Shown: piece by piece, positions 7,542 through 27,185 of the stretch | How positions within the stretch are numbered: position 1 is the first letter of the stretch | Layout of the letters: every line of letters begins with the position of its first letter | IMG/VR virus record: IMGVR_UViG_3300028025_004089 | Location: 1 to 43,281 of that record | Length of the DNA stretch: 43,281 bases | Reading direction: 5' to 3' (one strand) | Source of the DNA: a virus | Lineage: Duplodnaviria; Caudoviricetes | Translations under genes and position numbers: made by a program | The notes under the pieces: generated by a model | Databases searched by the model: none | Told to the model about the DNA's origin: nothing | Seen by the model: the letters and a program-made list of their open reading frames with translations, nothing else

Positions 7542-9074
7542 CTAGTAGTAGGCAGCTCTGCGCCGCCGAAATGTCTTGTCTTCTTGCTCATCCGAGTCAA
7601 GGGGTATAAACCCACCCTTTCGAAAGCGTAACAGCGCTTGCGAGGTGGTGTCAACGTAGTCGTCGTTCTCTCCGTTGGGGAAAGATGCAACTTCCTCGAT
7701 CACCTCGCGGGCCCAGCGCGTGTCTGGGGCCCAGACCGTACCCGACGCAAAAAGGTCAGACACAGCGTTAAGCCGCACGATTTTATCGTTACCCCGGCTG
7801 GGGCTGAACTCCTCCACAGGTATCCCTGTGGCCCGCAGCTCTTGGATCAGTGGTGCACCGGCGGCCTTCTTCTCCACAATGAACGCATCTGGGGACCACT
7901 CCTTGTAGTGTTTGAGCGCTATGGCCTTAAGCTCGGGGAACGCCATCCGGTCTTTGAACGCATCGAGCAGGATCACCTGCGCCTTGTCGCCCTCTTCCTC
8001 GTTGTAGAACACCCCCCACGTCGTGCATGCGGAATAGTCGGCCGTGTTCTTGGTCTCAAACGCCGTGTCCCAGCTCTGGATGATGTAGTCGCAGCGCGGT
8101 GGCTCATCCCCAAGCCATATACGCCAAGACTTGCGTGAGATGATGGCCGCACTGTTGCTGGTGGGCTGCTGCATGTACTGTGCGTTCCAGTACTGTGGGT
8201 CAATGCTGGCTTTCGTCGCTTTCAGTGTGGCCAGTGGCCACTGGTCTGGCCAAAGCGACTTCTCGTTCTCTGTGCCCTCGTTCAGTATGGCCGGAAGCTC
8301 TACGATCTCCCACGGTTCAGCGTCGGGGTTCTTCGCTTGGTAGTCAATCAGGCGTCCGGTCAGGTCCAACTTGCCCCAGCGCGTCATCACGATGATGATC
8401 GCACCGCCCGGCATCAGCCGCTGGAGCGGTCCTGTTTGGAACCAAGACCATGCAGTGTCGAAAGCCAGCCGTGAGTTGGCCTTAACGTCCTGCTCCGAGT
8501 GAGGATCATCAATAACGAACAGATCAGCACCACGGCCAGCAAGAGCGCCGCCGACACCAGCAGCATAGTACTGACCGCCAGCGCTTGTAGACCATTTACC
8601 AGCAGCCTTTTGGTCGTCTGCCACCAGCGTTTGGGGAAAAAGTCCATGGTAGTCGTCATCTGCTAGTAAGTTTCGTACCCGCCGACCAAAATCTTCGGAC
8701 AAACCGGCCGTGTGCGTGCCCATGATGATCTTCTTCTCAGGGAAATTACCCAAAAAGAAGGCCGGAAACAGGTAAGAGCTGAACTCAGACTTGCCCATAC
8801 GCGGCGCAATGTTGATGATGACCCGCTTTTTGGTTCCGGCAATCACTTCCGTGAAGATTTTGGCCAGCTTTCTGTGATGCGGCCCGACTTTGAAACCCGG
8901 ATAGACTGACTTAGCAAACGCAATCATGTCGGTGCGTGCCAAGTTTTTTGTCTTGTGCTCCTGCGCTTTGTCCAAAAGCTCCAACGCCTCCAACTTTTCC
9001 GTGGAGGACATCTTGCCAAGGTTCTTAAACAGAACCGCAGCCTGCTCAGGCGTCAGTGGCGGGTTCGTCGTCAT
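7542..9074 (-). CDS. terL: Terminase large subunit
   Basis: Walker A APRMGKS, Walker B LFVIDDP, MTRW motif, nuclease residues SWDTAF and DDYVD. Confidence 0.95.
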   Translation of the reverse strand: MTTNPPLTPEQAAVLFKNLGKMSSTEKLEALELLDKAQEHKTKNLARTDMIAFAKSVYPGFKVGPHHRKLAKIFTEVIAGTKKRVIINIAPRMGKSEFSSYLFPAFFLGNFPEKKIIMGTHTAGLSEDFGRRVRNLLADDDYHGLFPQTLVADDQKAAGKWSTSAGGQYYAAGVGGALAGRGADLFVIDDPHSEQDVKANSRLAFDTAWSWFQTGPLQRLMPGGAIIIVMTRWGKLDLTGRLIDYQAKNPDAEPWEIVELPAILNEGTENEKSLWPDQWPLATLKATKASIDPQYWNAQYMQQPTSNSAAIISRKSWRIWLGDEPPRCDYIIQSWDTAFETKNTADYSACTTWGVFYNEEEGDKAQVILLDAFKDRMAFPELKAIALKHYKEWSPDAFIVEKKAAGAPLIQELRATGIPVEEFSPSRGNDKIVRLNAVSDLFASGTVWAPDTRWAREVIEEVASFPNGENDDYVDTTSQALLRFRKGGFIPLDSDEQEDKTFRRRRAAYY

Positions 9075-9672
9075 CTTGGATTGGGGTAGGGGTGACTTCG
9101 GTGATCTCTGTTATGTCCGTCACGTCAGCGTCTGACACATCCATGAACTTGGCCAGCTTCTCTTTCAAGCGCTGGTCGATCTCGGCCTCGGTCATGTCGG
9201 TCTTCTTGATCTCAATCTTCTCGGTGAACAGGCCGATCTCTGTGACCTTACCCAAAAGGCCCAGCGCTTTGAGACGGATGTTGGCGTTGGGGTTCTCACA
9301 GTCTTCGAGGATTTTGGCTACTGCGTACCCGCGCAGTTCTTTAGCTTGGTGCACAAACTCCCAGTCGTAGGCCGTCAGCATTCCCACAAGGTGCTTCACG
9401 GCCGCAGGTGTCTGAATGCTTGTGAGCGCGGATTGAATTGATGCGGGGGTGGAACCTGTAGTGAGCGTGGCAAATGCTGCGCGAGCAGTGTGCGTCTCTG
9501 CCTCTGTCTGGGCGTTGCCGTCGTCAAGCCCCAAGTCCTTGAGCCAGTCGGCCGTTGCGACCTTGGCGTCAATCATCTGGGCAGGGGCTGCCTTTTCGAC
9601 CGGCGTGAAATCCTCAGGGACATCCATGAAGACTGTGGGGTCGAGGTCTGACGAGATCAGGTGTTCTAACAT
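9046..9672 (-). CDS. terS: Probable terminase small subunit
   Basis: Directly upstream of and overlapping terL; RLKALGLLGK...GLFTEK motif; ATG at 9672 with a GGGA SD preferred over the track start at 9726. Confidence 0.7.
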   Translation of the reverse strand: MLEHLISSDLDPTVFMDVPEDFTPVEKAAPAQMIDAKVATADWLKDLGLDDGNAQTEAETHTARAAFATLTTGSTPASIQSALTSIQTPAAVKHLVGMLTAYDWEFVHQAKELRGYAVAKILEDCENPNANIRLKALGLLGKVTEIGLFTEKIEIKKTDMTEAEIDQRLKEKLAKFMDVSDADVTDITEITEVTPTPIQDDDEPATDA

Positions 9673-9694
9673 TTGGTCCCAAAGGAATTGCGGG

Positions 9695-9742
9695 TTGCTT
9701 TCCCGATGTGCTGAGTATATACTCACATTGGCAGTGCCGCAA
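9695..9742. promoter_or_regulatory. Bidirectional sigma70-type promoter with a palindromic -10 region
   Basis: Plus: TTGCTT (9695-9700)-17-TATACT (9718-9723). Minus: TTGCGG (9742-9737)-17-TATACT (9719-9714). Both -10 boxes lie in the 14-bp palindrome TGAGTATATACTCA (9712-9725). Confidence 0.7.
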
Positions 9743-9806
9743 GGCGTTGCTTCTCCTTGGGTTGAGAGACCCCTTAACCCCCCGTGGCAACCCGGGGGGT
9801 TTTTTT
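9730..9806 (+). ncRNA. Candidate small RNA with an anti-RBS seed
   Basis: Promoter upstream; 5' hairpin GCAGTGCC-GCAA-GGCGTTGC (GNRA loop); seed TTCTCCTTGGGTTG; intrinsic terminator; no ATG in the interval. Confidence 0.65.
9776..9806 (+). terminator. Intrinsic terminator of the candidate sRNA
   Basis: AACCCCCCG-TGGCAACC-CGGGGGGTT running into a 7-T tract. Confidence 0.8.
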
Positions 9807-9879
9807 ATGCCCGAGATTTTTTGAAATTTTTATAAAATTTTTTGGAGGGTGCTTAATTTTTAAGCAGGGGGTGAGTTGC

Positions 9880-9895
9880 TGTCTAAGTTTATACA
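9880..9895. promoter_or_regulatory. Operator-like 16-bp imperfect palindrome, copy 1
   Basis: TGTCTAAGTTTATACA; resembles 17015-17030 and 25597-25612. Confidence 0.4.
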
Positions 9896-12270: not shown

Positions 12271-12342
12271 ATCGGTTGGTGCGCTCAGCGGGGCGGCGCA
12301 CCATACCGCATATACCCTGCCCCCAAACCAAGGAGAACGAAG

Positions 12343-12537
12343 ATGAAGTCTTGCAGAAACTGCACCAAGTCCACCCACGGGTGGGGGTACAACCCCGAGC
12401 TTAGTTGCCGTGCGTTTGATAAGCGGGTAGCACCGCCCGTATCCATGAGCACAGAGGACAACCTCAAGGCAGACGCTGACTGCCGCACATACGCCAACAA
12501 CTGCCCCGCATACACACCCGAAGGAGAAACCAAATGA
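12343..12537 (+). CDS. Small Cys-rich hypothetical protein
   Basis: CCAAGGAGAA SD; CxxC plus further Cys residues, possible Zn finger. Confidence 0.7.
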   Translation: MKSCRNCTKSTHGWGYNPELSCRAFDKRVAPPVSMSTEDNLKADADCRTYANNCPAYTPEGETK

Positions 12538-12800
12538 GTGAAACAACGTACATCGACATGACTGCGGGAATGCTCAAGCACAAGCAACCCACCTTCCACA
12601 TCCTGTGCATCAACGCATTCGGGTGGCGCTCGGGTGATGACCTGCACGCCCTGATGAAGGCGATGGACAAAGAGAAGCACACCTACTGGGTGTGGTACGT
12701 GCCCGGTGAGTCGACCGCATCGTACGGTATCAACTTCTACCAACCCCAAGTCGAGGGCGCATTCGTGCTGGCCCAAGTCGAGAAGAAACAACGCAAGTAA
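12534..12800 (+). CDS. Hypothetical protein
   Basis: 88 aa, AAGGAG SD, ATGA overlap. Confidence 0.75.
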   Translation: MSETTYIDMTAGMLKHKQPTFHILCINAFGWRSGDDLHALMKAMDKEKHTYWVWYVPGESTASYGINFYQPQVEGAFVLAQVEKKQRK

Positions 12801-12810
12801 GGAGCCCGCC

Positions 12811-12978
12811 ATGACTGTCTTAGAAATTGACGAGCTGGCCGCACACGTATCACGCACTTGCAAGTGGGATGGCGTCGCCATCGTGGATGTGATGCTCGAA
12901 GCGCTGACCGATGCCAACTTCCACACACTACGAGAACAACTCGAAGCACACTGCAAAGAGTACTTCGACAAAGAGTAA
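12811..12978 (+). CDS. Hypothetical protein (55 aa, LTDANFH motif)
   Basis: TAAGGAG SD before ATG 12811 (start reassigned from 12706). Confidence 0.75.
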   Translation: MTVLEIDELAAHVSRTCKWDGVAIVDVMLEALTDANFHTLREQLEAHCKEYFDKE

Positions 12979-12996
12979 CGGGGGAACGGTTCCCCC
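12979..12996. repeat. Dispersed palindrome, copy 5 (compensatory variant)
   Basis: C-GGGGGAA-CGG-TTCCCCC abutting the stop at 12978. Confidence 0.85.
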
Positions 12997-13000
12997 ATTA

Positions 13001-13025
13001 ACCGTGGGCACTGCGGCTCAGTGCC
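13001..13025 (+). repeat. Second leader motif, copy 1
   Basis: ACCGTG-GGCACTG-CGGCT-CAGTGCC. Confidence 0.75.
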
Positions 13026-13055
13026 TTTTCATATCAACAATCCAAGGAGTTTTCC

Positions 13056-13526
13056 ATGTCTACATTTTCCAAGCAAGTCGCCAAGGCCGCACGTCAAACC
13101 CGTGAGGAGGCCAAACGCATGACCCTCAAAGCCAGCCTCTTGAAGCACCACGCAGTCAAAGAAGCGTTCGAGCTGATCCCGCTCAACCTGCGCAAGGATG
13201 CAACGATCGCCATGTCCAGCTTCACCAACACAGTGCTCATCAACGTGCCCCTGCTCGACCTCGACTCATTCAAAGACAAGAAGTTCACCAACCTGATCGA
13301 GCGCTTCATTGACTGGGAGGCCACGACCAATGACTACACCTACGGCACACCCAATCGGGACGTGCGCTTAGAAAAGAAGGACTACGATGACAAGGTGGGC
13401 AGCTTCACCATCAGCGTGCAGGTGATGGCCTATGTGAAACACGACAGCCCGCTGTGCCGCATCGTGACCACGGGTTACACCGAAGAAGTGGTGCGCAAAG
13501 AAGTCAAGCAGATTGTCTGCGCCTAA
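13056..13526 (+). CDS. Hypothetical early protein
   Basis: 156 aa, CCAAGGAG SD. Confidence 0.8.
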   Translation: MSTFSKQVAKAARQTREEAKRMTLKASLLKHHAVKEAFELIPLNLRKDATIAMSSFTNTVLINVPLLDLDSFKDKKFTNLIERFIDWEATTNDYTYGTPNRDVRLEKKDYDDKVGSFTISVQVMAYVKHDSPLCRIVTTGYTEEVVRKEVKQIVCA

Positions 13527-13535
13527 GCAACCAAC

Positions 13536-13558
13536 AACGGGGACACGGTGTCCCCGTT
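13536..13558. repeat. Dispersed palindrome, copy 6
   Basis: AACGGGGACA-CGG-TGTCCCCGTT. Confidence 0.9.
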
Positions 13559-13576
13559 CAACCAAGGAGAGAGAAG

Positions 13577-13786
13577 ATGAAACAAGTATGGTTTGTGATG
13601 GACGCTGATCCAGAAGATTCAATCCCGGTGTTGTTCACCACCAAGATGGGGGCCGAGATTTACGCCCGCACGCTCTGGCCTGATGTTGACCCCAATACCC
13701 GCTATGCCCGTATCCGCTATCGCTCGGTATGGGAAGAGTCGGACATGCGCGAACACATCGCCAACGCCATTCGATCGCAGGCTTGA
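13577..13786 (+). CDS. Hypothetical protein (69 aa)
   Basis: CCAAGGAGA SD before ATG 13577 (MKQVWF...). Confidence 0.7.
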   Translation: MKQVWFVMDADPEDSIPVLFTTKMGAEIYARTLWPDVDPNTRYARIRYRSVWEESDMREHIANAIRSQA

Positions 13787-13789
13787 ACC

Positions 13790-14056
13790 ATGAGGATCGA
13801 CGAGATACCCGACACGGCGCTCAATGCCGCGCCTACCCCGATACCCACCAAGGTGGTGTATGACTGGTACGCACTGTACGAAACGCTTCAATCGCAAGGG
13901 TTTGTTGTCATCGAGAGTGACCAACTACGCACCATGCCAAGCGGTGGTGTTGAGTCTGTGCTGGTTAAGATGTTCAACAGCTACCTGCGCCAGACCATAG
14001 GCATGCGCCTCAAAACCAAACGCATCAGCGCCCATCGCTGGTACTGCACCCTTTAA
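13790..14056 (+). CDS. Hypothetical protein
   Basis: 88 aa, tightly packed in the operon. Confidence 0.7.
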   Translation: MRIDEIPDTALNAAPTPIPTKVVYDWYALYETLQSQGFVVIESDQLRTMPSGGVESVLVKMFNSYLRQTIGMRLKTKRISAHRWYCTL

Positions 14057-14074
14057 CAACCCAAGGAAACTGAA

Positions 14075-14503
14075 ATGACCATCGAAATGATTGAACCCAC
14101 AGAGCAAAACGCATTCCCAACTCAACCCGCAACTCAACCAGCCCAAGGAGTATTCATGGACAACTTCCAAGCCCCCAACCTCGTCGGCATCATCATGCAG
14201 GCGCTCGAGTCACACATCACCGCACTTGTCGACAAGCGGTTCAACGAGCGTATGGCTGACCTGCCTACGCCAGACTTGGAGGAGCTCAAGGACGAGCTCA
14301 ACGAAACCATCGACGAGAAGATGTCCGAGATCAAGGACGAGTTCAACGACATGATCGACGAGAAGATCAGCGACCACCAGTCTGAGTACGACCACGACGA
14401 GTACGACCAGTGCGTGCGCAACGTCGACGACGCTGGGCTTGATGACATCGAGGACAAGATCAGAGATGTTCTGCGCGGCTCCTCCTTCACCATCAGCCTG
14501 TAA
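14075..14503 (+). CDS. Acidic coiled-coil hypothetical protein
   Basis: CAAGGA SD; second in-frame start with CCCAAGGAG SD at 14156; Asp/Glu-rich internal repeat (E-L/I-KDE-L/F-N-x-x-IDEK twice). Confidence 0.8.
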   Translation: MTIEMIEPTEQNAFPTQPATQPAQGVFMDNFQAPNLVGIIMQALESHITALVDKRFNERMADLPTPDLEELKDELNETIDEKMSEIKDEFNDMIDEKISDHQSEYDHDEYDQCVRNVDDAGLDDIEDKIRDVLRGSSFTISL

Positions 14504-14510
14504 CCAAATC

Positions 14511-14535
14511 ACCGTGGCCACTGCGGTTCAGTGGC
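14511..14535 (+). repeat. Second leader motif, copy 2
   Basis: ACCGTG-GCCACTG-CGGTT-CAGTGGC. Confidence 0.75.
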
Positions 14536-14562
14536 AACCTTTCAATCCAATGGAGAATTCAA

Positions 14563-15528
14563 ATGGCACACATGATCGACACTTTTTCCCGCGCAACCGC
14601 ATCCTACGCATCCACACAACGTGAGTGGCACGGCCTTGGCCAACTCATGACCACAGGTGCAACCATCGAAGACTGGCAACGTGAGGCTGGCATGGACTAC
14701 AAAGTCCAGCGCTCTGTCATCCGCTACGCTACTGAACGTGACATCGCTACACCGGATCAGTTCCGCACAGTGGACGACAAGCACGTATTGTTCCGCTCAG
14801 ACACAGGCGCACCGCTGGGTGTGGTCAGTGACTCGTACAAGGTGGTGCAACCCATGGAGGTGCTCGAGTTCTTCCGTGACTGGGCCGCGCAGGGTGGGCT
14901 GACCATCGAGAGCGCGGGTGTTCTATTCGGTGGGCGTCGCTACTTCGCCACGGCCAAGCTGTCTGACGCTGTGTCCATCGATGGTGGGCGTGACACTATC
15001 GTGCCCTATGCCTTGCTGTCCACGTCTGCGGATGGTTCGCTTGCAACGGAGTGCCGATGGACTACGGTGCGCACGGTGTGCAACAACACGCTGACGATGG
15101 CACGCAAGGGTGCGGCCGCATTCAAGGTATCGCATCGCTCTGTGTTCGTGGCCGAGGACGCACGCATGGCCGTTGAGTCGGCGCATGAGGAGTTCGGTGC
15201 GTTCATGACCGCTGCGCGTTACCTGTCGACGGTGGGTATGAAGGCGGACGAGGCCGAGGACATGACCCTGCGCTTACTCATGAAGACCAACGAGGAGGTG
15301 ACACGTGCATCGGCTGGGTTCAACCGCATCATGGGCCTGTTCAACGGGCAGGGCATGGGCAGCAACTTCGAAACCGCGCACGATACCGCATGGGGCTGGC
15401 TCAACGCTGTGACTGAGTACGTCGACCACCACAGCCGCACACGTAGCCCCGAGAACCGCACAGCATCCGCGCTGTGGGGCCAAGGAGAGGCGCTCAAAGC
15501 CAAGGCATTGGCGTTGGTGACAGCGTAA
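14563..15528 (+). CDS. DUF932-family phage/plasmid protein
   Basis: WHGLG, RSDT...LGVVS..YKVVQP, ESAG-L-GG, T-VR-VCNNTL and TAWG-LNAVTEYVDH motifs. Confidence 0.85.
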   Translation: MAHMIDTFSRATASYASTQREWHGLGQLMTTGATIEDWQREAGMDYKVQRSVIRYATERDIATPDQFRTVDDKHVLFRSDTGAPLGVVSDSYKVVQPMEVLEFFRDWAAQGGLTIESAGVLFGGRRYFATAKLSDAVSIDGGRDTIVPYALLSTSADGSLATECRWTTVRTVCNNTLTMARKGAAAFKVSHRSVFVAEDARMAVESAHEEFGAFMTAARYLSTVGMKADEAEDMTLRLLMKTNEEVTRASAGFNRIMGLFNGQGMGSNFETAHDTAWGWLNAVTEYVDHHSRTRSPENRTASALWGQGEALKAKALALVTA

Positions 15529-15535
15529 GAGAAAG

Positions 15536-15556
15536 ACGGGGACATGGTGTCCCCGT
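15536..15556. repeat. Dispersed palindrome, copy 7
   Basis: ACGGGGACA-TGG-TGTCCCCGT. Confidence 0.9.
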
Positions 15557-15581
15557 TCATTTAACCAAGAAGGAGAATGAA

Positions 15582-15749
15582 ATGAAAACGTATCAAGTAG
15601 AACTCAAGCGCACCAGTTACGTCACGATTGAGGTGGAGGCTGAGTCGCAAGATGCGGCCGAGGACGCAGCTTGGCTGGAATTGCAAACCTGTGACTACGA
15701 CGACAGCGACGCAGACTGGCAACTGGAATCAATCGAGGTGAGCAAATGA
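15582..15749 (+). CDS. Small acidic protein (VEAES-x-x-AE-x-x-A motif, DpnD/PcfM-like pattern)
   Basis: AAGGAG SD before ATG 15582; 55 aa. Confidence 0.7.
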   Translation: MKTYQVELKRTSYVTIEVEAESQDAAEDAAWLELQTCDYDDSDADWQLESIEVSK

Positions 15750-15976
15750 AAACGATTATTCACGTCAACCAGCACGTCATCAAGGCCAACGCCAAGACGG
15801 GGGCCAACGACCCTGTGCTGACAGTCAAGGACTACAAGCGCAACAGGTACGCGCACGAAGTGAAGATACACGGGGAAAGCCGGATTGTGTACTCGGCCGA
15901 CAAGCCGCTGTCATGCGGCGCACGAGTGTGGATTGAGACCCACGCAGAAGTTGAAATCGTTGAGGAGCAAGCATGA
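15746..15976 (+). CDS. Conserved phage hypothetical protein
   Basis: IHVNQH-IK-N...KPLSCGARVWIET motif; ATGA overlap. Confidence 0.8.
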   Translation: MKTIIHVNQHVIKANAKTGANDPVLTVKDYKRNRYAHEVKIHGESRIVYSADKPLSCGARVWIETHAEVEIVEEQA

Positions 15977-16095
15977 AATACAAAGGCCCACCCAAACCAC
16001 TACCCACCCACATCGAGATCGTCAGCGACAAGGCTGAGCGTGTGATCTTTCTTCTGTTGGCCTTCTTCTTGGCCGTCCACCTTTACTTGGAGTGA
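15973..16095 (+). CDS. Small membrane protein (40 aa)
   Basis: GAGGAG SD, ATGA overlap, C-terminal hydrophobic stretch VIFLLLAFFLAVHLYL. Confidence 0.6.
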   Translation: MKYKGPPKPLPTHIEIVSDKAERVIFLLLAFFLAVHLYLE

Positions 16096-16097
16096 CC

Positions 16098-16295
16098 ATG
16101 ACCTCTCTTCCCTATCAACAAGCTCTTTCTGACCTACAGAAAACACTAAACGCGGCTATCAAAGAATGCGAGCGCTACGCAAGACCTGCGCACGCTGTGC
16201 GTAACTGCCCATCAGACCTGCAAAGCGAAGACCAAGCATGGCGCAAGCGTCAGAGTATCGAGTTTCAAATCCGTCAACTAACCAAAGGAGAATGA
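16098..16295 (+). CDS. Hypothetical protein
   Basis: GGAG SD; fills the gap in the operon. Confidence 0.55.
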   Translation: MTSLPYQQALSDLQKTLNAAIKECERYARPAHAVRNCPSDLQSEDQAWRKRQSIEFQIRQLTKGE

Positions 16296-16296
16296 C

Positions 16297-16998
16297 ATGC
16301 CCGGAGCAACCATCTACAAAGGCCCGTCGCGCATCGACGGTGCACCCATCATCGCTGTCGCGGTATGGGACTCAAGCAACCGCAAGACAGGCAAGATGCT
16401 ACAGACGTACATCCTGCGCGAGGACATCGACCCACGCGATGCCAACAAGTACGGCGAGGACTACAGCATCTGCGGTACGTGCGACCTCAAGGGCGACCCA
16501 ACCTTCGACCCTGACGTCAAGCTGGCCACAGGCCGCAAGTGCTACGTGGTGCTGGGCCAAGGCCCGACCATCGTGTTCAAGACGTACAAGCGCGGCGGGT
16601 ATCCCGACTACACCAACACAACCCTGCGCAAGTCTCTGGGGTTCAAAGCCATGGTGCGCATCGGTACGTACGGTGATGGCGCGGCTGTGCCCGATGAAGT
16701 GTGGGACGACCTGCTCAGCGATGCCGCTGGCCATACCGCGTATAGCCACAACGGTGGCGACCCGGCTAGATACATGGTGAGCGCTGACTCACTTGGCAAG
16801 GCAGAGGATGCATGGCGCAGCAAGTACCGCACGTTCCGCATCGTCAAGGATAGGCACGAGATCATCAAGGGCCAAGAGATCGAGTGTCCGTCTGACCGTG
16901 GCGTCAAGTGCATCGACTGCGGCCTGTGCGCAGGCACATCTGTGCAAGCCAAGAGTATCGCCATCGTTGTGCATGGCGGCGGTGCAAAATATTTTTGA
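16297..16998 (+). CDS. Cys-rich probable Fe-S/metal-binding protein (GP88-like pattern)
   Basis: CGTC...CYV, RIGTYGD and CP...CIDCGLC motifs; AAGGAG SD. Confidence 0.7.
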   Translation: MPGATIYKGPSRIDGAPIIAVAVWDSSNRKTGKMLQTYILREDIDPRDANKYGEDYSICGTCDLKGDPTFDPDVKLATGRKCYVVLGQGPTIVFKTYKRGGYPDYTNTTLRKSLGFKAMVRIGTYGDGAAVPDEVWDDLLSDAAGHTAYSHNGGDPARYMVSADSLGKAEDAWRSKYRTFRIVKDRHEIIKGQEIECPSDRGVKCIDCGLCAGTSVQAKSIAIVVHGGGAKYF

Positions 16999-17006
16999 TA
17001 ACCCCC

Positions 17007-17036
17007 TTGACTTCTGTCAAGTGCTAGACAAATAAT
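17007..17036 (+). promoter_or_regulatory. Promoter with an operator-like palindrome in the spacer (operator copy 2)
   Basis: TTGACT (17007-17012)-18-AATAAT (17031-17036); TGTCAAGTGCTAGACA at 17015-17030. Confidence 0.55.
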
Positions 17037-17057
17037 CCCAATTCCAAGGAGAAAATA

Positions 17058-17249
17058 ATGGACTGCAAGAAAACAATACCGTTCGTTCCGGTAGGTCATC
17101 CCGACTTTAAATGGACGTCAGGCGCGGACGTGCAAGCTACGTGGCGCAAGTATGGCTGGACGCCGCCCTCCGAGGGCATTACTCCGCCGCCCCCACCCCC
17201 GGTACTGGAGGAGCCACCCTTCGCACCGTTCCTGCGCCGCTTTAAGTAG
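17058..17249 (+). CDS. Small conserved phage protein (DVQATWRKYGW motif)
   Basis: CCAAGGAGAA SD; 63 aa with a Pro-rich tail. Confidence 0.75.
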   Translation: MDCKKTIPFVPVGHPDFKWTSGADVQATWRKYGWTPPSEGITPPPPPPVLEEPPFAPFLRRFK

Positions 17250-17257
17250 GCGGTGAT

Positions 17258-18148
17258 ATGCAACGCGATATTGTCTATCAGACCCAAAACCGCCTACGCG
17301 ACATAGCAAACGGCGTGAAGCACACGCCCTTGCACACATTCCAAGAATGCTGCGAAGCAGCAGGTATCGACCACCGTGTGTTCGGCCGCTTAGCCGCTAA
17401 ACATCCCGATGCGCCCAAGCCCGTACTGGAACACGCAAAGACTGCGTGGAAAGCGGGGAAGAAGTACTACCGCAAGCACGAGTTCGTGCAGTGGGTTAAT
17501 CAGTTTCGTCAACAAAAGGAGAAGGCAGTGCCTGATATTAAATCCGCGCTTGAGAAGGCGCTCGCACAAACAGCAAACGCATGGGCCGCAGATGATGAGG
17601 CCCACAAACAAATTCAACCACAACAGGAGAATGAAATGCCAGTTGAGCAGCAGACCGAGCGCATGAACACCAACATATCCCGTACCACGTTTGATTTTAT
17701 TCGGGACAATCCGGGCCTTACCAATCAAGAAGTAACCGCCCGCCTTGCGGCGCACGGGTTCAAGGGAACCACAGTCTCATCGCTGGCCTACCAGATGCTG
17801 CGCGTGCGCCTGATCGTGGCCGATGAAGAGGGAAAGCTGACCGCCGCGGTGCGTGAGTATGCGCCCATCCAAACGAGCCAGATGCGCAAGGCGCGGAAGA
17901 AAACCAAAGCCAAGCCCGTGCAGGATGTAGCGCCAACACCACGCAAGCATATTGAGATCGTCAACACACGCACAGGGGAGGTTATCAACCCCAAGCCAGC
18001 AGGTATCGCTTCGTTGCCTGCCAAACACGTAACCACAGCGCTGTACACCACGCCTGCTGAGTGGTCAGTCGAGTCCGTGATCGGTGGCCTGAACGTACGC
18101 CAAGCCATGGCCGTATATGCAGAACTGCGCAACATATTTGGGGCGTGA
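17258..18148 (+). CDS. Hypothetical protein with two HTH-like segments and in-frame internal starts
   Basis: 296-aa ORF; SD plus start codon also at GTG 17528 and ATG 17636; wHTH-like segment FDFIRDNPGLT...VSSLAYQM. Confidence 0.7.
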   Translation: MQRDIVYQTQNRLRDIANGVKHTPLHTFQECCEAAGIDHRVFGRLAAKHPDAPKPVLEHAKTAWKAGKKYYRKHEFVQWVNQFRQQKEKAVPDIKSALEKALAQTANAWAADDEAHKQIQPQQENEMPVEQQTERMNTNISRTTFDFIRDNPGLTNQEVTARLAAHGFKGTTVSSLAYQMLRVRLIVADEEGKLTAAVREYAPIQTSQMRKARKKTKAKPVQDVAPTPRKHIEIVNTRTGEVINPKPAGIASLPAKHVTTALYTTPAEWSVESVIGGLNVRQAMAVYAELRNIFGA

Positions 18149-18151
18149 AGC

Positions 18152-18355
18152 ATGAAACTGTTTGAAGTACCAAGATACAGCCGAATCAGAGTTGGTGGAA
18201 ATGCGCTGGATTTTCACCACATTGACGGGATGTACAGCTATTGCACGGACAGAAACGGCAAAGTCCACCACATTGCTGCGTGGGCTGATGTCGAAGTTCT
18301 TGGGCCTTGGGAGGATGTGGCCCAGCCAGTACCCAAAGGAGAGAGCAATGAATGA
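18152..18355 (+). CDS. Small conserved phage protein (FHHIDGMYSYC motif)
   Basis: 67 aa, packed in the operon. Confidence 0.75.
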   Translation: MKLFEVPRYSRIRVGGNALDFHHIDGMYSYCTDRNGKVHHIAAWADVEVLGPWEDVAQPVPKGESNE

Positions 18356-18587
18356 AGCAATGAAACAAGCGTGGCTGGAGATCGACCAGCTATTGGGTGA
18401 GCCTACCCGCGAGGAGCTGGACGTGTTCCTACGCGCGTGGCAGAGGGCCATACAAGCGGAGCGCGAGGAGTGTGAAACAGTTTGCGACAACTTGTATCGT
18501 GCTTGGGTGTCGACAGACGATGACGACATCAACCCGCCGGACGCGTTGGACTGCAAGAGAGCGATCCGCGCAAGGGGGCAAGCATGA
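18348..18587 (+). CDS. Hypothetical protein, ERE-x-C...AIRARGQA family
   Basis: AAGGAG SD before ATG 18348; shares C-terminal motifs with 18721-18954. Confidence 0.75.
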   Translation: MNEAMKQAWLEIDQLLGEPTREELDVFLRAWQRAIQAEREECETVCDNLYRAWVSTDDDDINPPDALDCKRAIRARGQA

Positions 18588-18724
18588 CCGCCATCATCGA
18601 ATACATCAAAAAACTGTTCGCCCGTGTAGCGCCAGCCGCTACAGATGAACACTGCCCGTATTGCTATGGCTGCGGCTATGACAGCAGCGGATATACCTGT
18701 TCATGCATACGGGAGAAGAAATGA
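18584..18724 (+). CDS. Small Zn-finger-like protein (46 aa)
   Basis: ATGA overlaps at both ends; CPYCYGCGY...CSC. Confidence 0.65.
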   Translation: MTAIIEYIKKLFARVAPAATDEHCPYCYGCGYDSSGYTCSCIREKK

Positions 18725-18954
18725 AAGACATCATTGAGATGGCTACGGCGGTGGGCTACCCATTGATGGTATTTGATGGAGTGCCATACGTTTCGCCTGC
18801 GCTTGAACGCTTTGCCGCCCTTGTCCGTGCTGATGAGCGTGAGGCGTGTGCAAAGGTGTGTGAAACGTACAACAAACGGCAGTGCTACAACGACGAAGAC
18901 ATGGCGGTAGCAAACGAATGCGCCGCCGCCATCCGAGCAAGGGGACAAGCATGA
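18721..18954 (+). CDS. Hypothetical protein, EREACA...AIRARGQA family
   Basis: GGAG SD, ATGA overlaps; paralogous C-terminus with 18348-18587. Confidence 0.75.
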   Translation: MKDIIEMATAVGYPLMVFDGVPYVSPALERFAALVRADEREACAKVCETYNKRQCYNDEDMAVANECAAAIRARGQA

Positions 18955-19178
18955 ACACCGAAGACGATGAATTCAACCGCATCGAGCGTGAAGCTGCCAT
19001 GCGCAAGGCCGCCGTATCCGCAACCGTTGCAAAGCGTGAGTGGGTGGGGCTTAGCCTTGCGGAGATGGACGCCATCATCGACGGCAACATGACAATCACT
19101 GACTCAAAACTGCGCGATGCCGTATACGCGGTAATGCTCGACACAATGACAACTTTAATGGAGAAGAACCATGGCTAA
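18951..19178 (+). CDS. Hypothetical protein (REWVGL motif)
   Basis: ATGA overlap; MNTEDDEFNRIEREA... Confidence 0.7.
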   Translation: MNTEDDEFNRIEREAAMRKAAVSATVAKREWVGLSLAEMDAIIDGNMTITDSKLRDAVYAVMLDTMTTLMEKNHG

Positions 19179-19395
19179 ACTGCCGTACACATTCACGATC
19201 TGCCCTGACCAAGAGGCACCGAAGACTTTCACTGCGAGCTGTGCCGCCATGGGGCGCTTGCTTCAAGACAGCCCTGACGGAGACCTAACAATCAACCAAA
19301 AAAGATTTGGCATGTGGGACTCATGGACGGGCGGTGGGGTTGACGCTCCCATCGAAGAAAAACTACACGTGATGCTCCAAAAGGACAAGCCATGA
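19171..19395 (+). CDS. Hypothetical protein
   Basis: GGAG SD, 74 aa, overlaps both neighbours. Confidence 0.7.
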   Translation: MAKLPYTFTICPDQEAPKTFTASCAAMGRLLQDSPDGDLTINQKRFGMWDSWTGGGVDAPIEEKLHVMLQKDKP

Positions 19396-19688
19396 ACTGT
19401 AAATGCCATCCCGACTCGCCGTTCCACTGGGCCAGCAACCCACGCGACAGCATGTTTATGAAAGACCACACGTTCAGGGCCAAGGGTGCTGAGGGTAAAA
19501 GCGGAGCACAGATCGCCACGGATTTTGTGGACTACCAGCGCCAGCTCGGCAAAGAGGTCGGCACGATTAAAAAACTTGGATCGCGCACGAAAGAGAAAGA
19601 AAACGCACTGATTGCGTACAAGCAGTTCGGTATCTTTCTACGCGCCATGCCCCACATCAAACCGCAACTCAACAAGCACGAACTTTAA
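19392..19688 (+). CDS. Hypothetical protein
   Basis: AAGGA SD, ATGA overlap, 98 aa. Confidence 0.7.
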   Translation: MNCKCHPDSPFHWASNPRDSMFMKDHTFRAKGAEGKSGAQIATDFVDYQRQLGKEVGTIKKLGSRTKEKENALIAYKQFGIFLRAMPHIKPQLNKHEL

Positions 19689-19939
19689 TGAGAACCAACA
19701 CAACGCCTTCGCTGCGCACGCTGCTTAGAGACAACCCTGACGGGCTGGATGTAGGCACAATGGCCAACTACCTTGAGCGAGAACCCGGCAACATCCGCAG
19801 GTTGCTCAGCACAATGCCTGACGCATACATCGACAGGTGGATACGCCAAACCGGGAACCCCCCAACAGCCATCTGGTGCGTTGTTGTGCCCCCAGAAAAT
19901 TGCCCAAGACCAGACGCTAAACGAAAGAGAAAATCATGA
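19688..19939 (+). CDS. Probable winged-helix DNA-binding protein
   Basis: LLRDNPDGL...MPDAYIDRW...AIWCVVVPPENCPRP; TAATG coupling. Confidence 0.65.
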   Translation: MRTNTTPSLRTLLRDNPDGLDVGTMANYLEREPGNIRRLLSTMPDAYIDRWIRQTGNPPTAIWCVVVPPENCPRPDAKRKRKS

Positions 19940-20184
19940 ACATCAAAGACGGAACCAACGGCACTGCGGCCGATGACATACAGATCAGCGGCAACCACTA
20001 CAAAGACATGCCCATCCAGCCGTGGCACATCATGGAGGCAGTGCTGACCAGCGAGGAGTTCGTAGGCTTCCTCAAGGGTAACGTCATCAAGTACAGCCTG
20101 CGTGCTGGGCGCAAGGACGGCAGCGATGATGCGGGCAAGGCCAAGCACTACATGCAAAAGCTCAAAGAGTTCAGGGGGTACTGA
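19936..20184 (+). CDS. DUF3310-family protein (related to T7 gp1.7-type nucleotide kinases)
   Basis: G-HY...IQPW...GFLKGNVIKY..RAGRK...D..KA-HY motif. Confidence 0.8.
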   Translation: MNIKDGTNGTAADDIQISGNHYKDMPIQPWHIMEAVLTSEEFVGFLKGNVIKYSLRAGRKDGSDDAGKAKHYMQKLKEFRGY

Positions 20185-20185
20185 C

Positions 20186-20482
20186 ATGGCACAGACACCT
20201 GAAGGCAAGGTTAAAGCGGCGGTGCGTAAGATGCTGGACAAGCACGGCATCTACTACTTTATGCCCCCGGGCATGGGGCTTGGGCGCTCGGGTATCCCCG
20301 ACATCATCGGCTGCAAGAACGGCAAGTTTATTGCCATCGAGTGCAAGGCTGGCAAGGGCAAGACCACGGCCCTCCAAGATCGTGAGTTGGTTGCAATTTG
20401 CAACTCGGGCGGGTTCACGTTCGTGGTGAACGAGACCTGCATGGATGAACTAGAAGAAAGGTTGTTGGCATGGACAAGGTGA
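20186..20482 (+). CDS. VRR-NUC domain nuclease (Holliday-junction-resolvase-like)
   Basis: TPEGKVK...GIPDII...FIAIECKA...TALQ (PD-x-ExK); start reassigned to ATG 20186. Confidence 0.85.
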   Translation: MAQTPEGKVKAAVRKMLDKHGIYYFMPPGMGLGRSGIPDIIGCKNGKFIAIECKAGKGKTTALQDRELVAICNSGGFTFVVNETCMDELEERLLAWTR

Positions 20483-20754
20483 CACAAGAGGCGTGGGAGG
20501 ACACGATCGCCGCACTGAGCAAGAGCGACTCAGGACTGCGCGACCACTTCGCACAGCTCATCATGATGCTGGCCAAATGCTACGACCCCGACCTGCCCAA
20601 CAAGGCAGTTTTGCTGGTCGATACTGGCGAGGCGATGCTGACGTTCTGCGTCGGCGCTGACGAGATAGAGCTGGCTGAGATGGTCGGCCAAGCAAACGAG
20701 ATGGCGCAAGCGCTGACAATGCGCGACGCCCCACCCAAGGAGTTATTCAATTGA
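20470..20754 (+). CDS. Hypothetical protein
   Basis: 94 aa bridging the nuclease and polymerase genes, overlapping both. Confidence 0.7.
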   Translation: MDKVTQEAWEDTIAALSKSDSGLRDHFAQLIMMLAKCYDPDLPNKAVLLVDTGEAMLTFCVGADEIELAEMVGQANEMAQALTMRDAPPKELFN

Positions 20755-22748
20755 GCAAACCATTCGACCAAATCATTGTCGGTGACTTCGAGACAGCGTG
20801 GGGACGAGCCGCCCACATCAAGCTGGGGTTCTCGGCACAGACCAACGAGGAGTACGTGCGCGACCCGCGCTTCAAGGCATGGGGCATGTCGTGGAAATAT
20901 CTGGGCAGTGACGACGCACCTGTATGGGTGACACGCAAGGACCTGCCTACGTTCTTCAAGACCATTGATTGGAGCCGCACCGGGTTCTTGGCACAGAACA
21001 CCATGTTCGATGCGTTCATCTTGGCGCAGCACTACAACGTGCACCCCGCCTTTCTTATGGACACCCTGTCCATGGGCCGGGCACTGCGTGGGGTGGAGGC
21101 GGGCAACAGTCTTGCAAGACTGGCGCACATGCTTGGCCTGCCTGAGAAGGGCAAGGGGCTGGCCCCATCCGAGAACATACTGGACGAGCTACCCGCCGAT
21201 GTGGAGGAGGTGCTGGCCGAGTACTGCTGCCACGACACGTGGTTGTGCGAACAGATATTCTTTGGGCTGGGTGGTTGGAGTTACCCGATCAAGGAGTTGC
21301 GCCTCATTGACATGACGCTCAAGATGTACACCCGCGCCGAGCTGTTGCTGGACCGCAGCATGCTGATCAATGCGCTTAGCGAAGAAGGAGAAAAACGTGC
21401 AGGACTACTTAAAAGGCTCGGCGTGGAGGAAGCTGCGCTTGCGTCGAACGATAAGTTTGCGCAAGTACTTGCTGCCATGGGCGTCACTCCCCCTACGAAA
21501 ATCAGCAAGACCACTGGGAAGGAGGCGTTTGCTTTCGCAAAGAATGACGCGCTATTTCAAGCGATGCTCAACGGTGAACGTGAAGACGTTGCCCTTCTTT
21601 GTGAAGCGCGTCTACGGGTTAAGTCAACGACCGAACGTACACGAGCGCAGCGATTCCTTGACATATCGAGCAGGGGCCCGCTCCCGGTCCCGCTTAGTTA
21701 CTTCGGCGCGTCTACAGGCCGCTGGACTGCTGCACGTGGGTCGGCCATCAACATGCAAAACCTCAAGCGAGGTTCGTTCTTACGCAAAGCAATCATGGCA
21801 CCGGTGGGGCACCAGCTTGTCGTCGGGGACCTTTCGCAAATTGAACCGCGAGTCCTCGCGTGGCTTGCGGATTACCAAGATTTGCTCGACATCTTCCGGG
21901 CTGGCGGTGACCCTTACGCCACGTTCGGCTCTCAGATGTTCAACATACCCGGCCTTTCAAAAGAAAGTCATCCAGACCTGCGACAGTCTGCAAAGTCGGC
22001 GCTGCTCGGCTGCGGGTACGGTCTTGGCTGGGCGTCTTTCGCTTCCCAGCTTCTCGTTGGATTCCTTGGCGCTCCTCCCGTACGCTACGACTTGGCCTTT
22101 GCGAAGAAGCTCGGGGTCACAGGTGAGCAGGCGCAGAAGTTCCTTGACTGGGATGTGAACGTAGAGAAGCTGCAAGCCATACCACACACCTGCACAACCA
22201 AAGAGCTGGTGATCCACTGCCTTGCAGCCAAGGCCATCATCGACAAGTACCGCGCCACTGCCACCCCTGTAGTCTCATTTTGGGACCTAATGAGCAGCCT
22301 GATCGAGGAGTCGCTGTATACGGGTAAGGAGTACCAAGTCAAGTGCCTGACTTTCAGGAAGGGGCAGATCATGCTGCCAAGCGGGATGCCCATCAACTAC
22401 CCCGGGCTAAACGTCAAGCGCACAACTGATGAAAAAACAGGCAAATCAAACAAGGAGTGGACGTATGGCGAAAACCGTATTAAACTCTACGGAGGAAAAG
22501 TAACCAACAACGTCACGCAAGGCGTAGCAAGATGCGTGATGACTGATGGGATGTTGAGAACGTCAAAGCGGTACTTCGTAGCGGGTACGGTGCATGACGA
22601 ACAGATCGTGGTGGTGCCGGATGCGGACGTCGAAGAAGCGAAGACTTGGGTCTTGGCGCAAATGACTATGGAGCCGAGCTACCTGCCGGGTATACCTCTG
22701 GACGCTGACGGTGGCGCACACCGTCGTTATGGGTTAGCTAAAAACTAA
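20751..22748 (+). CDS. polA: Family A DNA polymerase with 3'-5' exonuclease domain
   Basis: Exo I DFET, Exo III YCCHD, TGRW, motif A DLSQIEPR, motif B KSALLGCGYG, motif C VHDE. Confidence 0.95.
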   Translation: MSKPFDQIIVGDFETAWGRAAHIKLGFSAQTNEEYVRDPRFKAWGMSWKYLGSDDAPVWVTRKDLPTFFKTIDWSRTGFLAQNTMFDAFILAQHYNVHPAFLMDTLSMGRALRGVEAGNSLARLAHMLGLPEKGKGLAPSENILDELPADVEEVLAEYCCHDTWLCEQIFFGLGGWSYPIKELRLIDMTLKMYTRAELLLDRSMLINALSEEGEKRAGLLKRLGVEEAALASNDKFAQVLAAMGVTPPTKISKTTGKEAFAFAKNDALFQAMLNGEREDVALLCEARLRVKSTTERTRAQRFLDISSRGPLPVPLSYFGASTGRWTAARGSAINMQNLKRGSFLRKAIMAPVGHQLVVGDLSQIEPRVLAWLADYQDLLDIFRAGGDPYATFGSQMFNIPGLSKESHPDLRQSAKSALLGCGYGLGWASFASQLLVGFLGAPPVRYDLAFAKKLGVTGEQAQKFLDWDVNVEKLQAIPHTCTTKELVIHCLAAKAIIDKYRATATPVVSFWDLMSSLIEESLYTGKEYQVKCLTFRKGQIMLPSGMPINYPGLNVKRTTDEKTGKSNKEWTYGENRIKLYGGKVTNNVTQGVARCVMTDGMLRTSKRYFVAGTVHDEQIVVVPDADVEEAKTWVLAQMTMEPSYLPGIPLDADGGAHRRYGLAKN

Positions 22749-22758
22749 GGAGAAGCAT

Positions 22759-23070
22759 ATGCAACCAATGAGAGTCCCGATCCACATGACTGTGGGTGAG
22801 CACAAGTACGGCGTCCATGTCGTCAAGTACATGCCCCGCAAGGGGGCCATGGGTGTCACCTACTACGGCAACAAATGCATCAGCGTTGCCACACACAGCA
22901 ACAAGTCGCGCACACAGTTCGCCCCGCCTGACTTCAACGAGACCTTCTGGCACGAGCTCACACACGCTGTGTTGTTCGAGATGGGTAGTTCGTTGTACAA
23001 GGACGAGGTGTTTGTGACCCGCTTTGCCAAGCACTTGTCCAACGCCATCGACACAGCGGAGTTCAGATGA
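22759..23070 (+). CDS. Small zincin-like metallopeptidase-domain protein
   Basis: TFWHELTHA (HExxH) followed by DE-FV; TAAGGAG SD. Confidence 0.7.
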   Translation: MQPMRVPIHMTVGEHKYGVHVVKYMPRKGAMGVTYYGNKCISVATHSNKSRTQFAPPDFNETFWHELTHAVLFEMGSSLYKDEVFVTRFAKHLSNAIDTAEFR

Positions 23071-23988: not shown

Positions 23989-24004
23989 AACCAAGGAGAA
24001 GCGC

Positions 24005-25561
24005 GTGCAGATCATTGAAGACAAGGCACTGCTGTTCAGAACCCGTAACCCCGACAAGTACAGAATCATTCCCAAGCACAAGGTCATCCCTGTGCCGGGT
24101 GGTTTTGAGGTCGCGGTTTACTGGGGGCTGGACGAAGCAAGGGTGCTGCGCAATCTGGGGGTGAAGGACGTACCTTCTCCCATAATCAAACGATACAACT
24201 GGCCCGGCCGTTATAAGCCGATGGCCCACCAAGTGGAGACGGCAGCGTTTCTCACAATGAACCGCAGGGCGTTTGTGTTCAGCGAACCCGGCACCGGCAA
24301 GACGCTCAGCGCTTTGTGGGCAGCCGACTACCTGATGACGTTGGGCAAGGTCAGGCGTGTGTTGGTCCTGTGCCCTCTGTCGATCATGCACAGCGCATGG
24401 ATGGGAGACATCAACTCCAGCGTGATCCACCGCTCCGCTGTGATCGCCCACCACCCTAAAGCATCGCGGCGCATTGAGCTCATCCAGCACGACTACCAGA
24501 TCGTTATCGCCAACTACGAAGGTCTCAACCTGATTGCAGACGAGATCGTCAATGACGGGCGCTTTGATCTGGTGATTGTGGACGAGGCCAACGCCTACAA
24601 GATGCCGACCACGCAGCGCTGGAAGTCGCTTAACAAGATCATCGGCCCTGAGACATATCTGTGGATGATGACCGGAACTCCTGCGTCGCAGTCTCCCGTT
24701 GATGCGTACGGGCTGGCCAAGCTGGTCAACCCAGAGGGTGTGCCCAAGTTCTTCACGGCGTGGCGCGACAAGGTGATGACCAAGCTGACCATGTACAAGT
24801 GGGTGGCCAAGCCAGATGCCAAGGAGACGGTGTTCGAGGCGCTGCAACCAGCGATACGCTTTACCAAAGCGCAGTGTCTGGACCTGCCGCCAGTGATCAC
24901 GATGACGCGTGACGTGCCGCTTACACCCCAGCAGGCCAAGTATTACAACCTGCTCAAAGATCAGCTACTGTTTCAAGCGGCGGGGGAGACGATCAGCGCA
25001 GTCAATGCTGGTGTGGCTGTGAGCAAGCTCTTGCAGATCAGTTGCGGCGCTGCCTACACCGACGACAAGGAGGTGGTGGAGTTCGACGCCTCGCCTCGCT
25101 TGGCGGTACTGGAGGAGGTGCTCGAGGAAACTACCCGCAAGGTCATCATCTTCGCGCTGTTCACCAGCACCATCGAGGCCATCCACCGGCACCTGCTCAA
25201 GAAGAACATCAGCGCCGACATCATTGACGGCAGCGTCAGCCCGTCCAAACGGGGGCAGATCATCCACAGGTTCCAGAACGAGCCTGACCTACGGGTGCTG
25301 GTGATGCAGCCTGCTGCTTCTGCGCACGGCATCACGCTGACTGCTGCCGACACGGTTGTGTTCTACGGCCCCCTGATGAGCGTGGAGCAATACATCCAGT
25401 GCTGCGCCCGTGCTGACCGCAAGGGGCAGGACTCCGACAAGGTGACGGTGGTGCACATTCAGGGCTCCGCCATCGAGAAGCGCATGTTCAAGGCGTTGGA
25501 AGGGAAAGTTAGCGATAACTCACTTCTTACCGACATGTTCAAGTCAGAAATAAATTTTTAA
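24005..25561 (+). CDS. SNF2-family helicase
   Basis: PGTGKT, DEAN, MTGTP, GITLT and Q...RA-R-GQ motifs; GTG start with CCAAGGAG SD (track start 23660 is too early). Confidence 0.9.
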   Translation: MQIIEDKALLFRTRNPDKYRIIPKHKVIPVPGGFEVAVYWGLDEARVLRNLGVKDVPSPIIKRYNWPGRYKPMAHQVETAAFLTMNRRAFVFSEPGTGKTLSALWAADYLMTLGKVRRVLVLCPLSIMHSAWMGDINSSVIHRSAVIAHHPKASRRIELIQHDYQIVIANYEGLNLIADEIVNDGRFDLVIVDEANAYKMPTTQRWKSLNKIIGPETYLWMMTGTPASQSPVDAYGLAKLVNPEGVPKFFTAWRDKVMTKLTMYKWVAKPDAKETVFEALQPAIRFTKAQCLDLPPVITMTRDVPLTPQQAKYYNLLKDQLLFQAAGETISAVNAGVAVSKLLQISCGAAYTDDKEVVEFDASPRLAVLEEVLEETTRKVIIFALFTSTIEAIHRHLLKKNISADIIDGSVSPSKRGQIIHRFQNEPDLRVLVMQPAASAHGITLTAADTVVFYGPLMSVEQYIQCCARADRKGQDSDKVTVVHIQGSAIEKRMFKALEGKVSDNSLLTDMFKSEINF

Positions 25562-25612: not shown

Positions 25613-25639
25613 AACAAAACAGATTTTTAGGAGAAGCAA

Positions 25640-26044
25640 ATGTCAGAAGCAGCCATCCCCCTCGACCGACTTGCGAAGATTTATCGCAAAGTTCGGACAC
25701 AGATCGCCACCCTCACGCAAGAGTACGACACGAAAGTGGAAGAACTCAAAGCTGTGCAGGATGAAGTGGCCAACGCCATGAAGGACCAGATGAAGACCAT
25801 GGGGGTCACATCAGTCCGTACATCGGAAGGCACAGTCGTGCTTTCTGTCAGCACCCGCTACAACACGCAAGACTGGGACTCTTTCAAGAAGTTCGTGGTC
25901 GAGCATGACGCAGTGGACCTGCTGGAAAAGCGCATCGCCCAAGGCAACATGCGCCAATTCCTTGAAGAAAATCCGGGCGCTGTTCCGCCCGGTCTGAACT
26001 CGAGTTCCGAGTATTCAGTGTCAGTTCGTAAACCAACCAAGTGA
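25640..26044 (+). CDS. Conserved replication-module protein (coiled coil plus DW..F...LLEKRI...PPGLN)
   Basis: AGGAG SD, 134 aa. Confidence 0.8.
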   Translation: MSEAAIPLDRLAKIYRKVRTQIATLTQEYDTKVEELKAVQDEVANAMKDQMKTMGVTSVRTSEGTVVLSVSTRYNTQDWDSFKKFVVEHDAVDLLEKRIAQGNMRQFLEENPGAVPPGLNSSSEYSVSVRKPTK

Positions 26045-27175: not shown

Positions 27176-27185
27176 ACCTAACACT

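Follow-up and report, generated by a model that had tools for sequence, protein, structure and literature searches.

A candidate phage sRNA that co-varies with the ribosome-binding sites of early and replication genes

Positions 9730..9806 of an uncultured phage genome from a large family of lake phages, together with the promoter upstream, form a conserved promoter-hairpin-UCUCCU-hairpin-terminator unit that is the likely source of a trans-acting sRNA. Changes in the seed of this RNA go along with changes in the ribosome-binding sites (RBSs) of early and replication genes in the same phage, but not in those of capsid genes, so the RNA is likely to shut off the early and replication genes. On these comparative grounds, we consider it probable that a trans-acting anti-RBS sRNA represses the translation of its own phage's early and replication genes, spares the capsid genes and acts as a self-silencing timer.

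The predicted RNA unit and its distribution

The window, that is, the whole stretch of DNA analysed here, is an uncultured phage record of 43,281 bases that is 67% complete. Virion and packaging genes run leftward from 9672, and small early genes and a replication module (DNA polymerase, nuclease, SNF2-type helicase and primase) run rightward from 10108. The first gene of the late operon is a putative terS (9046..9672, minus strand), named from its position before terL (7542-9074, phrog_38); PHROG and Pfam gave no match for it. The window terL shares 47-54% identity with the terL of DSL-LC04, HTVC027P, 023Pt_psg01 and HTVC023P, and DSL-LC04 is described as metagenome-assembled and outside any known family (PMC10611076). 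About 1,600 stretches in IMG/VR have a related terL, and about 490 and 150 match the two seed patterns. In MAGs, terL fragments were found on four short contigs with four unrelated labels, which give no consistent host assignment; Burkholderiales is a weak guess for the host.

The predicted sRNA (9730..9806, plus strand) is 77 nt long, and none of 200 shuffles folded as well (z=-3.5); across the family the predicted length had a median of 88 nt and a range of 62-141 nt. Its predicted promoter (9695..9723, plus strand) combines a -35 box TTGCTT (9695-9700), a 17-nt spacer and a -10 box TATACT (9718-9723), which were read off the sequence by eye and are absent from the listing of the consensus scan. 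It overlaps a divergent predicted terS promoter (9714..9742, minus strand; -35 TTGCGG at 9742-9737, -10 TATACT at 9719-9714), and the two divergent -10 boxes form a single palindrome (9714-9723) that varies in step across the family (AGTATATACT, AGTGTACACT, AATGTACACT). In the predicted fold, the 5' end of the RNA pairs with the UUGCU half of the seed to form a 5' hairpin, P1 (9730..9751, plus strand). The conserved seed UUGCUUCUCCU (9747..9757, plus strand) leads into a second hairpin of variable sequence, P2 (9759..9772, plus strand), and into an intrinsic terminator with a U-tail (9776..9806, plus strand), placed by terminator prediction with its U-run and by the fold. UCUCCUU at 9752-9758 is predicted to be single-stranded and is a likely toehold; these are only about 7 of the 19 nt that had been proposed as the seed. 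The fold, the terminator with its U-run and the promoter boxes confirmed the complete promoter-hairpin-seed-terminator unit that the earlier note had described. The opposite strand contained no conserved ORF among the relatives compared. At the level of sequence the unit has what is generally asked of a trans-encoded sRNA, namely its own promoter, an intrinsic terminator and no conserved ORF.

Relatives were gathered via terL and terS, with the best 80 kept per viral scan and one scan seeded with an RNA-less terS. Among 130 distinct terS upstream regions, 123 carried the unit head-to-head with terS: 112 with a canonical-type core (70 GCTTCTCC, 28 GCTTTCTCC and 14 other) and 11 with a variant CU stretch and a terminator; the remaining 7 had no unit. 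We then compared 229 distinct core-bearing sequences, comprising relatives and loci found by the seed pattern, for which the core and the terminator, not the promoter, had been preselected. The plus-strand -10 box reads TAnnnT in 228/229 and TTG stands at the -35 position in 226/229, while on the minus (terS) strand the -10 consensus is kept with TTG in the -35 window in 216/229. The -10 box had decayed to TACACC in 7 distinct RNA-less sequences, all from one clade.

In 217/229 sequences the pairing partner of the seed G lies 8-11 nt beyond the -10 box, which indicates that P1 starts at the expected transcription start. The base facing this G was C in 104, U in 13, A in 3 and G in none of 120 cases, a G.U pattern that is weak evidence because C-to-U is also the commonest mutation. 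The RNAs' own 5' end/extension pairings outscored all 200 swaps, and the median z was -2.6 for P1 and -2.4 for P2 (80 sequences sampled from 229). Two hairpins followed the core in 217/229, and the UCUCCU positions had a mean unpaired probability of 0.89-0.97 over the 229 sequences. Per-sequence folds were used because column-wise pair counts on a MAFFT alignment were uninformative, slid controls being equally high. The seed UGCUU(U)CUCC starts 24-85 nt past the -10 box, and one relative (L464) reads UGUCUCCU at this place. Both flanks of the RBS match had been said to fit the sRNA; of the two, the family keeps the AAGC side and not the CC side.

Of the 239 viral hits of the seed pattern, 206 had terS as neighbour and 11 had primase. 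Distant relatives, whose helicase is about 50% identical, carry the unit after primase, where it faces a giant DarB-like gene. In this sub-lineage (L382, L354, L223, L232, L440; G057, G052, G047, G066) it closes the primase operon and is convergent with the DarB-like gene, and its promoter, TTGCGG-17-TA.ACT, lies within the 3'-terminal part of a short ORF. Two complete genomes had a single strong copy each and no more than 1-2 core sites. This location far from terS shows that the RNA has a gene of its own, while it loosens the tie to the late promoter. No unit was found within 2.5 kb terL flanks of DSL-LC04, HTVC027P, HTVC023P, 023Pt_psg01 or MinM2. In G070 and G072 the unit is absent and no second copy was found; the loss looks recent, the helicase distance to the RNA-bearing G073 being about 0.07.

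A scan of metagenomes for the pattern gave 119 hits; a family marker was missing from 81, and many look like chance or reversed RBSs. One hit (G068:C1, L442) is the reverse complement of a real gene's RBS, which calls for caution in pattern scans; a reversed RBS with a terminator is also a possible route to the origin of such RNAs. In a Limnohabitans-labelled genus, 8/61 genomes had a match to our model R1 at E<=0.01, and the best of five inspected (38 bits) lacked the seed. Two weakly scoring anti-SD units were also seen in genomes of this genus (L708:1501-1584 and L713:1501-1568, both minus strand), one with GCUUCUCCU and one RF02278-like with UGUCUCCUCC.

A TGTC-N8-GACA palindrome occurs at window positions 17015-17030 and 25597-25612 and in degenerate form at 9880-9895, and at the same three places in 21 genomes: ahead of the 17058/17258 genes, directly behind the -10-like box that precedes gene 25640, and a little beyond the terminator of the sRNA. 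The last of these sites was present in 138/247 terS upstream regions. The palindrome is a candidate operator for the HTH gene at 27129-27464, and its recurrence at two promoters on the replication side and next to the RNA hints at a parallel transcriptional switch.

Start sites matched by the RNA

All eight seed/RBS matches quoted in the earlier note proved exact and lie before starts; a further 10-nt match before the DNA polymerase (20733-20742) was missing from it. On the plus strand, 7 of the 8 matches of at least 10 nt to the 19-mer were at RBSs. Matches of at least 8 nt were found at 13/32 plus-strand starts and 0/10 minus-strand (late) starts (Fisher p=0.018, hand-curated start list). 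With CUCCU fixed and the flanks shuffled, none of 300 shuffled seeds reached the pairing of the real seed at the plus-strand starts or at its three best targets; 8/300 gave an early-late gap as large.

The best-supported predicted target is the RBS and GTG start of the SNF2-type helicase gene (23991..24007, plus strand; gene 24005-25561, Pfam SNF2-rel_dom), which has a 12-nt match at 23991-24002, ranks 1 of 42 starts by seed duplex energy and shows co-variation. The RBS at 22747..22761 (plus strand) ranks 2 of 42; it belongs to a conserved gene after the DNA polymerase (22759-23070, phrog_1233; here g22759). The third, at 25629..25642 (plus strand), was predicted from pairing energy and RBS comparison and belongs to gene 25640-26044 (g25640), which opens the operon ending in primase. 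PHROG labels this gene a 'minor head protein' (phrog_13900), yet it lies on the early strand, in the replication operon, with a predicted-target RBS. Weaker predicted targets (12328..20742, plus strand) are the RBSs before 12343, 12534, 13056, 13577, 14075, 14156, 15582, 16297, 17058 and the DNA polymerase at 20751, with matches of 8-11 nt that are mostly on the non-conserved CC side. In the helicase of another genome (G011:C1:41373-43793), the match is split by an in-frame insertion of ~280 codons in an open frame of 812 aa, possibly an intein.

Across relatives, the RBS motif GGAGAA(A)GCA is enriched before early and replication genes, and hardly any late gene has it. Starts were anchored either on GGAG or on homology. 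Among the GGAG starts of 17 genomes in which both modules were present, AA(A)G[CT] followed GGAG at 104/425 early/replication starts versus 2/163 late starts, which bears out the expected excess of extended pairing at early over late RBSs. The mean extension was longer at early starts in 17/17 genomes, a fairer result than the pooled counts because related genomes share genes. Net binding of the full-length RNA was -13.9 kcal/mol for the three targets versus -4.9 kcal/mol for capsid, decoration and scaffold, with the same order in 16/16 genomes (one of the 17 lacks these three late genes). A 16S-like anti-SD, whose tail motif we assumed, binds both classes alike (-7.5 vs -7.6 kcal/mol), i.e., their Shine-Dalgarno strength is equal. 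A second start motif, GGAGAAGAAC(AC)-ATG, was observed at 34/716 early/replication starts of relatives and is not complementary to the RNA. In G002, an early-gene block ~2.8-6.4 kb past terS occurs twice, probably through assembly overlap, and nine distinct starts read GGAGAAAGC, matching the genome's own three-U RNA.

The seed/RBS co-variation that had been suggested as a check in relatives was found, with two-U and three-U forms of the seed corresponding to two RBS types. Cross-tabulation of RNA type and RBS type gave 23/0/1/15 for the helicase, where the types matched in 38 of 39 typed sites (of 46), 15/6/0/13 for g22759 (34 typed of 45) and 20/6/1/17 for g25640 (44 typed of 48). Genome-wide, AAG outnumbered AAAG sites by 71 to 41 in the 20 genomes with the two-U form and was outnumbered by 6 to 56 in the 9 genomes with the three-U form. 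The preference of sites for their own RNA, uncorrected for kinship, had z=-8.6 for the helicase and -4.1 and -4.9 for g22759 and g25640, versus -2.0 to +1.7 for five controls.

For phylogenetically independent comparisons, we used edge-disjoint pairs on a quick helicase tree of 55 genomes and ran ten such tests. The own RNA was better in 14 versus 3 of 21 pairs for the three targets together (p=0.013) and in 12 versus 2 of 19 for the helicase, and in 9 versus 8 of 19 for the five pooled controls. Primase, chosen as a control, also scored (12 vs 3, p=0.035). The tests of g22759 alone and g25640 alone were non-significant, and a binary test gave 4/0/1 (p=0.125). The RNA therefore appears to have an exposed seed co-varying with distant targets, as is generally expected of an sRNA, with moderate phylogenetically independent support (p=0.013, several tests).

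Matched changes beyond the core were seen by eye: AAC/AAC in G020 and G033, ATC/ATC in G021 and G024, AAAGC-ATG in the G059 group, and CAG/CAG in G085 and G086. The last two are among six genomes that were added after the pattern had been seen, in which 18/18 target RBSs were of the predicted type. The agreement has exceptions. One two-U clade carries three-U sites at g22759 and g25640 (6 genomes each), 7/46 helicase RBSs lack any match, and the genomes with a variant core (G073-G079) match their own RBSs poorly. In the RNA-less G070, the helicase and g22759 sites have no match and the g25640 site does.

Alternative explanations and known systems

As to purpose, immunity is the main rival: the RNA of a resident phage would silence these genes in incoming kin (superinfection exclusion) or keep the genome silent in a carrier state, and the two-U and three-U forms would be immunity types. 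All of the pairing evidence fits this equally, a sigma-70-type promoter needs no late factor, and starred branches in the helicase tree record at least 5-7 switches of RNA type; the c4 heteroimmunity of P1/P7 and STnc6030 are reported precedents (PMC12197685). We still regard it as unlikely, given that no integrase or lysogeny repressor was found among the 51 window proteins scanned of this 67% complete record, and that late RBSs without the motif are expected mainly if the RNA and late mRNAs coexist in productive infection. A somewhat less likely explanation does without a base-pairing regulator, the RBS motif being a protein site (for a RegB-like nuclease or a translation factor) or a strong A-rich initiation signal that recombination has spread between gene cassettes, with its inverted copy homogenised at the DNA level. 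The motif indeed persists without the RNA in G070 and G072 (4/22 and 3/14 early starts, together 7/36, near the 24% of RNA-bearing genomes) and resembles the reported T4 RegB site GGAGAAUAAAA (PMC1702504); GGAGAAGAAC is likewise unmatched to the RNA, and the UUGC of the seed is also held by P1 pairing. Yet the antisense copy is single and comes with a promoter, P1, P2 and a terminator of its own, all conserved while the sequences vary, and a decoy would be expected to have the motif in sense orientation. C is excluded from RegB sites, and the phage motif has a conserved GC; PHROGs named no RegB gene among the 51 window proteins, in a record where most early genes have no family.

The RNA might also be directed at the host, slowing its translation as an anti-SD RNA like the toxic sRNAs of betaproteobacteria, with the phage RBS match secondary. 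With UCUCC, a hairpin, a linker and a terminator, its layout is that of RF02278; growth is slower when ncS27 is overexpressed (PMC5688073), and GGAGA occurs at 26/72 GGAG starts of two Burkholderiales MAG samples. The AA(A)G[CT] extension, however, was found at 0/72 of these starts (0/38 and 0/34), a small sample from MAGs that may not represent the true host. The seed tracks each phage's own helicase RBS, and a best match to its own replication genes is not what such an RNA is expected to have, which makes this explanation improbable. The same count lends no support to host mRNAs as additional targets. The silencing scheme in the earlier note is thus partly supported: the conserved sRNA-type unit, the early-over-late pairing and the co-variation speak for phage genes as probable targets. 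Finally, the region might act only in cis, as the RBS and start of a minus-strand leader peptide of terS or as a terminator against read-through from the bidirectional promoter. A minus-strand ATG does follow the motif at RBS spacing in 46/88 relatives, but no start exists in 31/88, frames relative to terS are scattered and the peptides are not conserved, and we rejected a minus-strand uORF or terS extension as largely refuted. The predicted terS transcript begins downstream of the motif, the unit is also found away from terS and insulation requires neither seed nor P1; a role confined to cis is thus highly improbable.

Rfam gave 0 matches at E<=1 for the whole window, and the C4 antisense RNA (RF01695) was not among 23 weak matches in 9680-9830. 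RF02278 scored 20.1 bits against its gathering cut-off of 50, in a loose search that also rings in 13/14 control genomes; reciprocally, model R1 gave two true RF02278 hits 18.4 and 16.6 bits. RF02278 comprises the Burkholderia RNAs ncS03, ncS05, ncS27 and ncS62, which are described as short independent RNAs predicted to cover many RBSs; as in the phage unit, an unpaired anti-RBS stretch rich in C and U is followed by a hairpin, a U-rich linker and a terminator hairpin (PMC5688073, PMC4603805). They differ in being chromosomal, in 3-5 copies, with UGUCUCC near the 5' end and predicted metabolic targets (PMC5688073, PMC4603805), whereas the phage unit has one copy per phage, lacks a 5' UGUCUCC and instead carries UGCUU(U)CUCCU, half of which is masked by an additional 5' hairpin and which matches the phage's own genes.

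T4 RegB is alike in outcome, as it picks early mRNAs by GGAG and A-rich bases 3' of it and inactivates them; it differs in being a protein that cuts, needs S1 and has a site excluding C (PMC1702504). In the phage family, by contrast, the predicted selector is an RNA that changes with its sites, and the motif has a conserved GC. The c4 RNA of P1/P7 and the sar RNA of P22 are phage RNAs that pair over a phage RBS and block translation, but with one target (the antirepressor) and in lysogeny control (PMC12197685), whereas here a shared motif precedes up to about ten early/replication genes per genome, all predicted targets. VpdS of VP882 and PreS of lambda are trans-acting phage sRNAs in lytic growth; they are Hfq-dependent, PreS acts on host dnaN, and neither is described, in the review passages that treat them, as an anti-SD RNA co-evolving with its own start sites (PMC12197685). 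In the passages on phage sRNAs of that 2025 review, most RNAs that pair with phage mRNAs have one target and serve lysogeny, and none targets start sites of its own phage as a class (PMC12197685). A full-text literature search, which left most subscription papers and supplements outside its reach, returned no account of this RNA or of a phage anti-SD sRNA against its own early genes. We regard the RNA as a candidate phage sRNA that is uncatalogued, occurs across the family and has predicted targets backed by sequence comparison.

A possible mechanism and its meaning for the phage family

If the RNA silences early and replication genes, the exposed UCUCCU(U) would nucleate on the Shine-Dalgarno sequence, and A(A)GCA and the start codon of the mRNA would displace the RNA's own weaker 5' strand in P1. 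The outcome would be a duplex of 10-14 bp over the SD, the spacer and often the AUG, by which 30S loading would be blocked; the CAU beside the seed makes better sense as a complement to the start codons of the targets. A stable RNA would accumulate as time passes and genome copies increase, whereas mRNAs are degraded, and could thereby serve as a timer by which ribosomes are shifted from replication genes to virion genes. Since a promoter of the sigma-70 type would be active from the beginning of infection, gradual accumulation of the RNA is a more likely mode of action than late activation. Timing is the least supported part of this mechanism.

We tentatively extend this reading, with less confidence than in the repression itself, to a general scheme in which the early-to-late switch of the family would consist of one sRNA and a co-evolving start-site code. 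Early and replication genes would be tagged with GGAGAA(A)GCA, late genes would have equally strong untagged SDs, and toehold/P1-gated silencing would act on the tagged class, possibly also providing lineage-specific superinfection immunity. If true, this would be an RNA-only counterpart of T4 RegB, in which a single RNA appears to fit an entire temporal class of genes. The natural two-U and three-U alleles are ready-made compensatory pairs. The system would show, in an abundant uncultured phage family, how an anti-Shine-Dalgarno RNA gains specificity by using the spacer between the SD and the start codon as an address.
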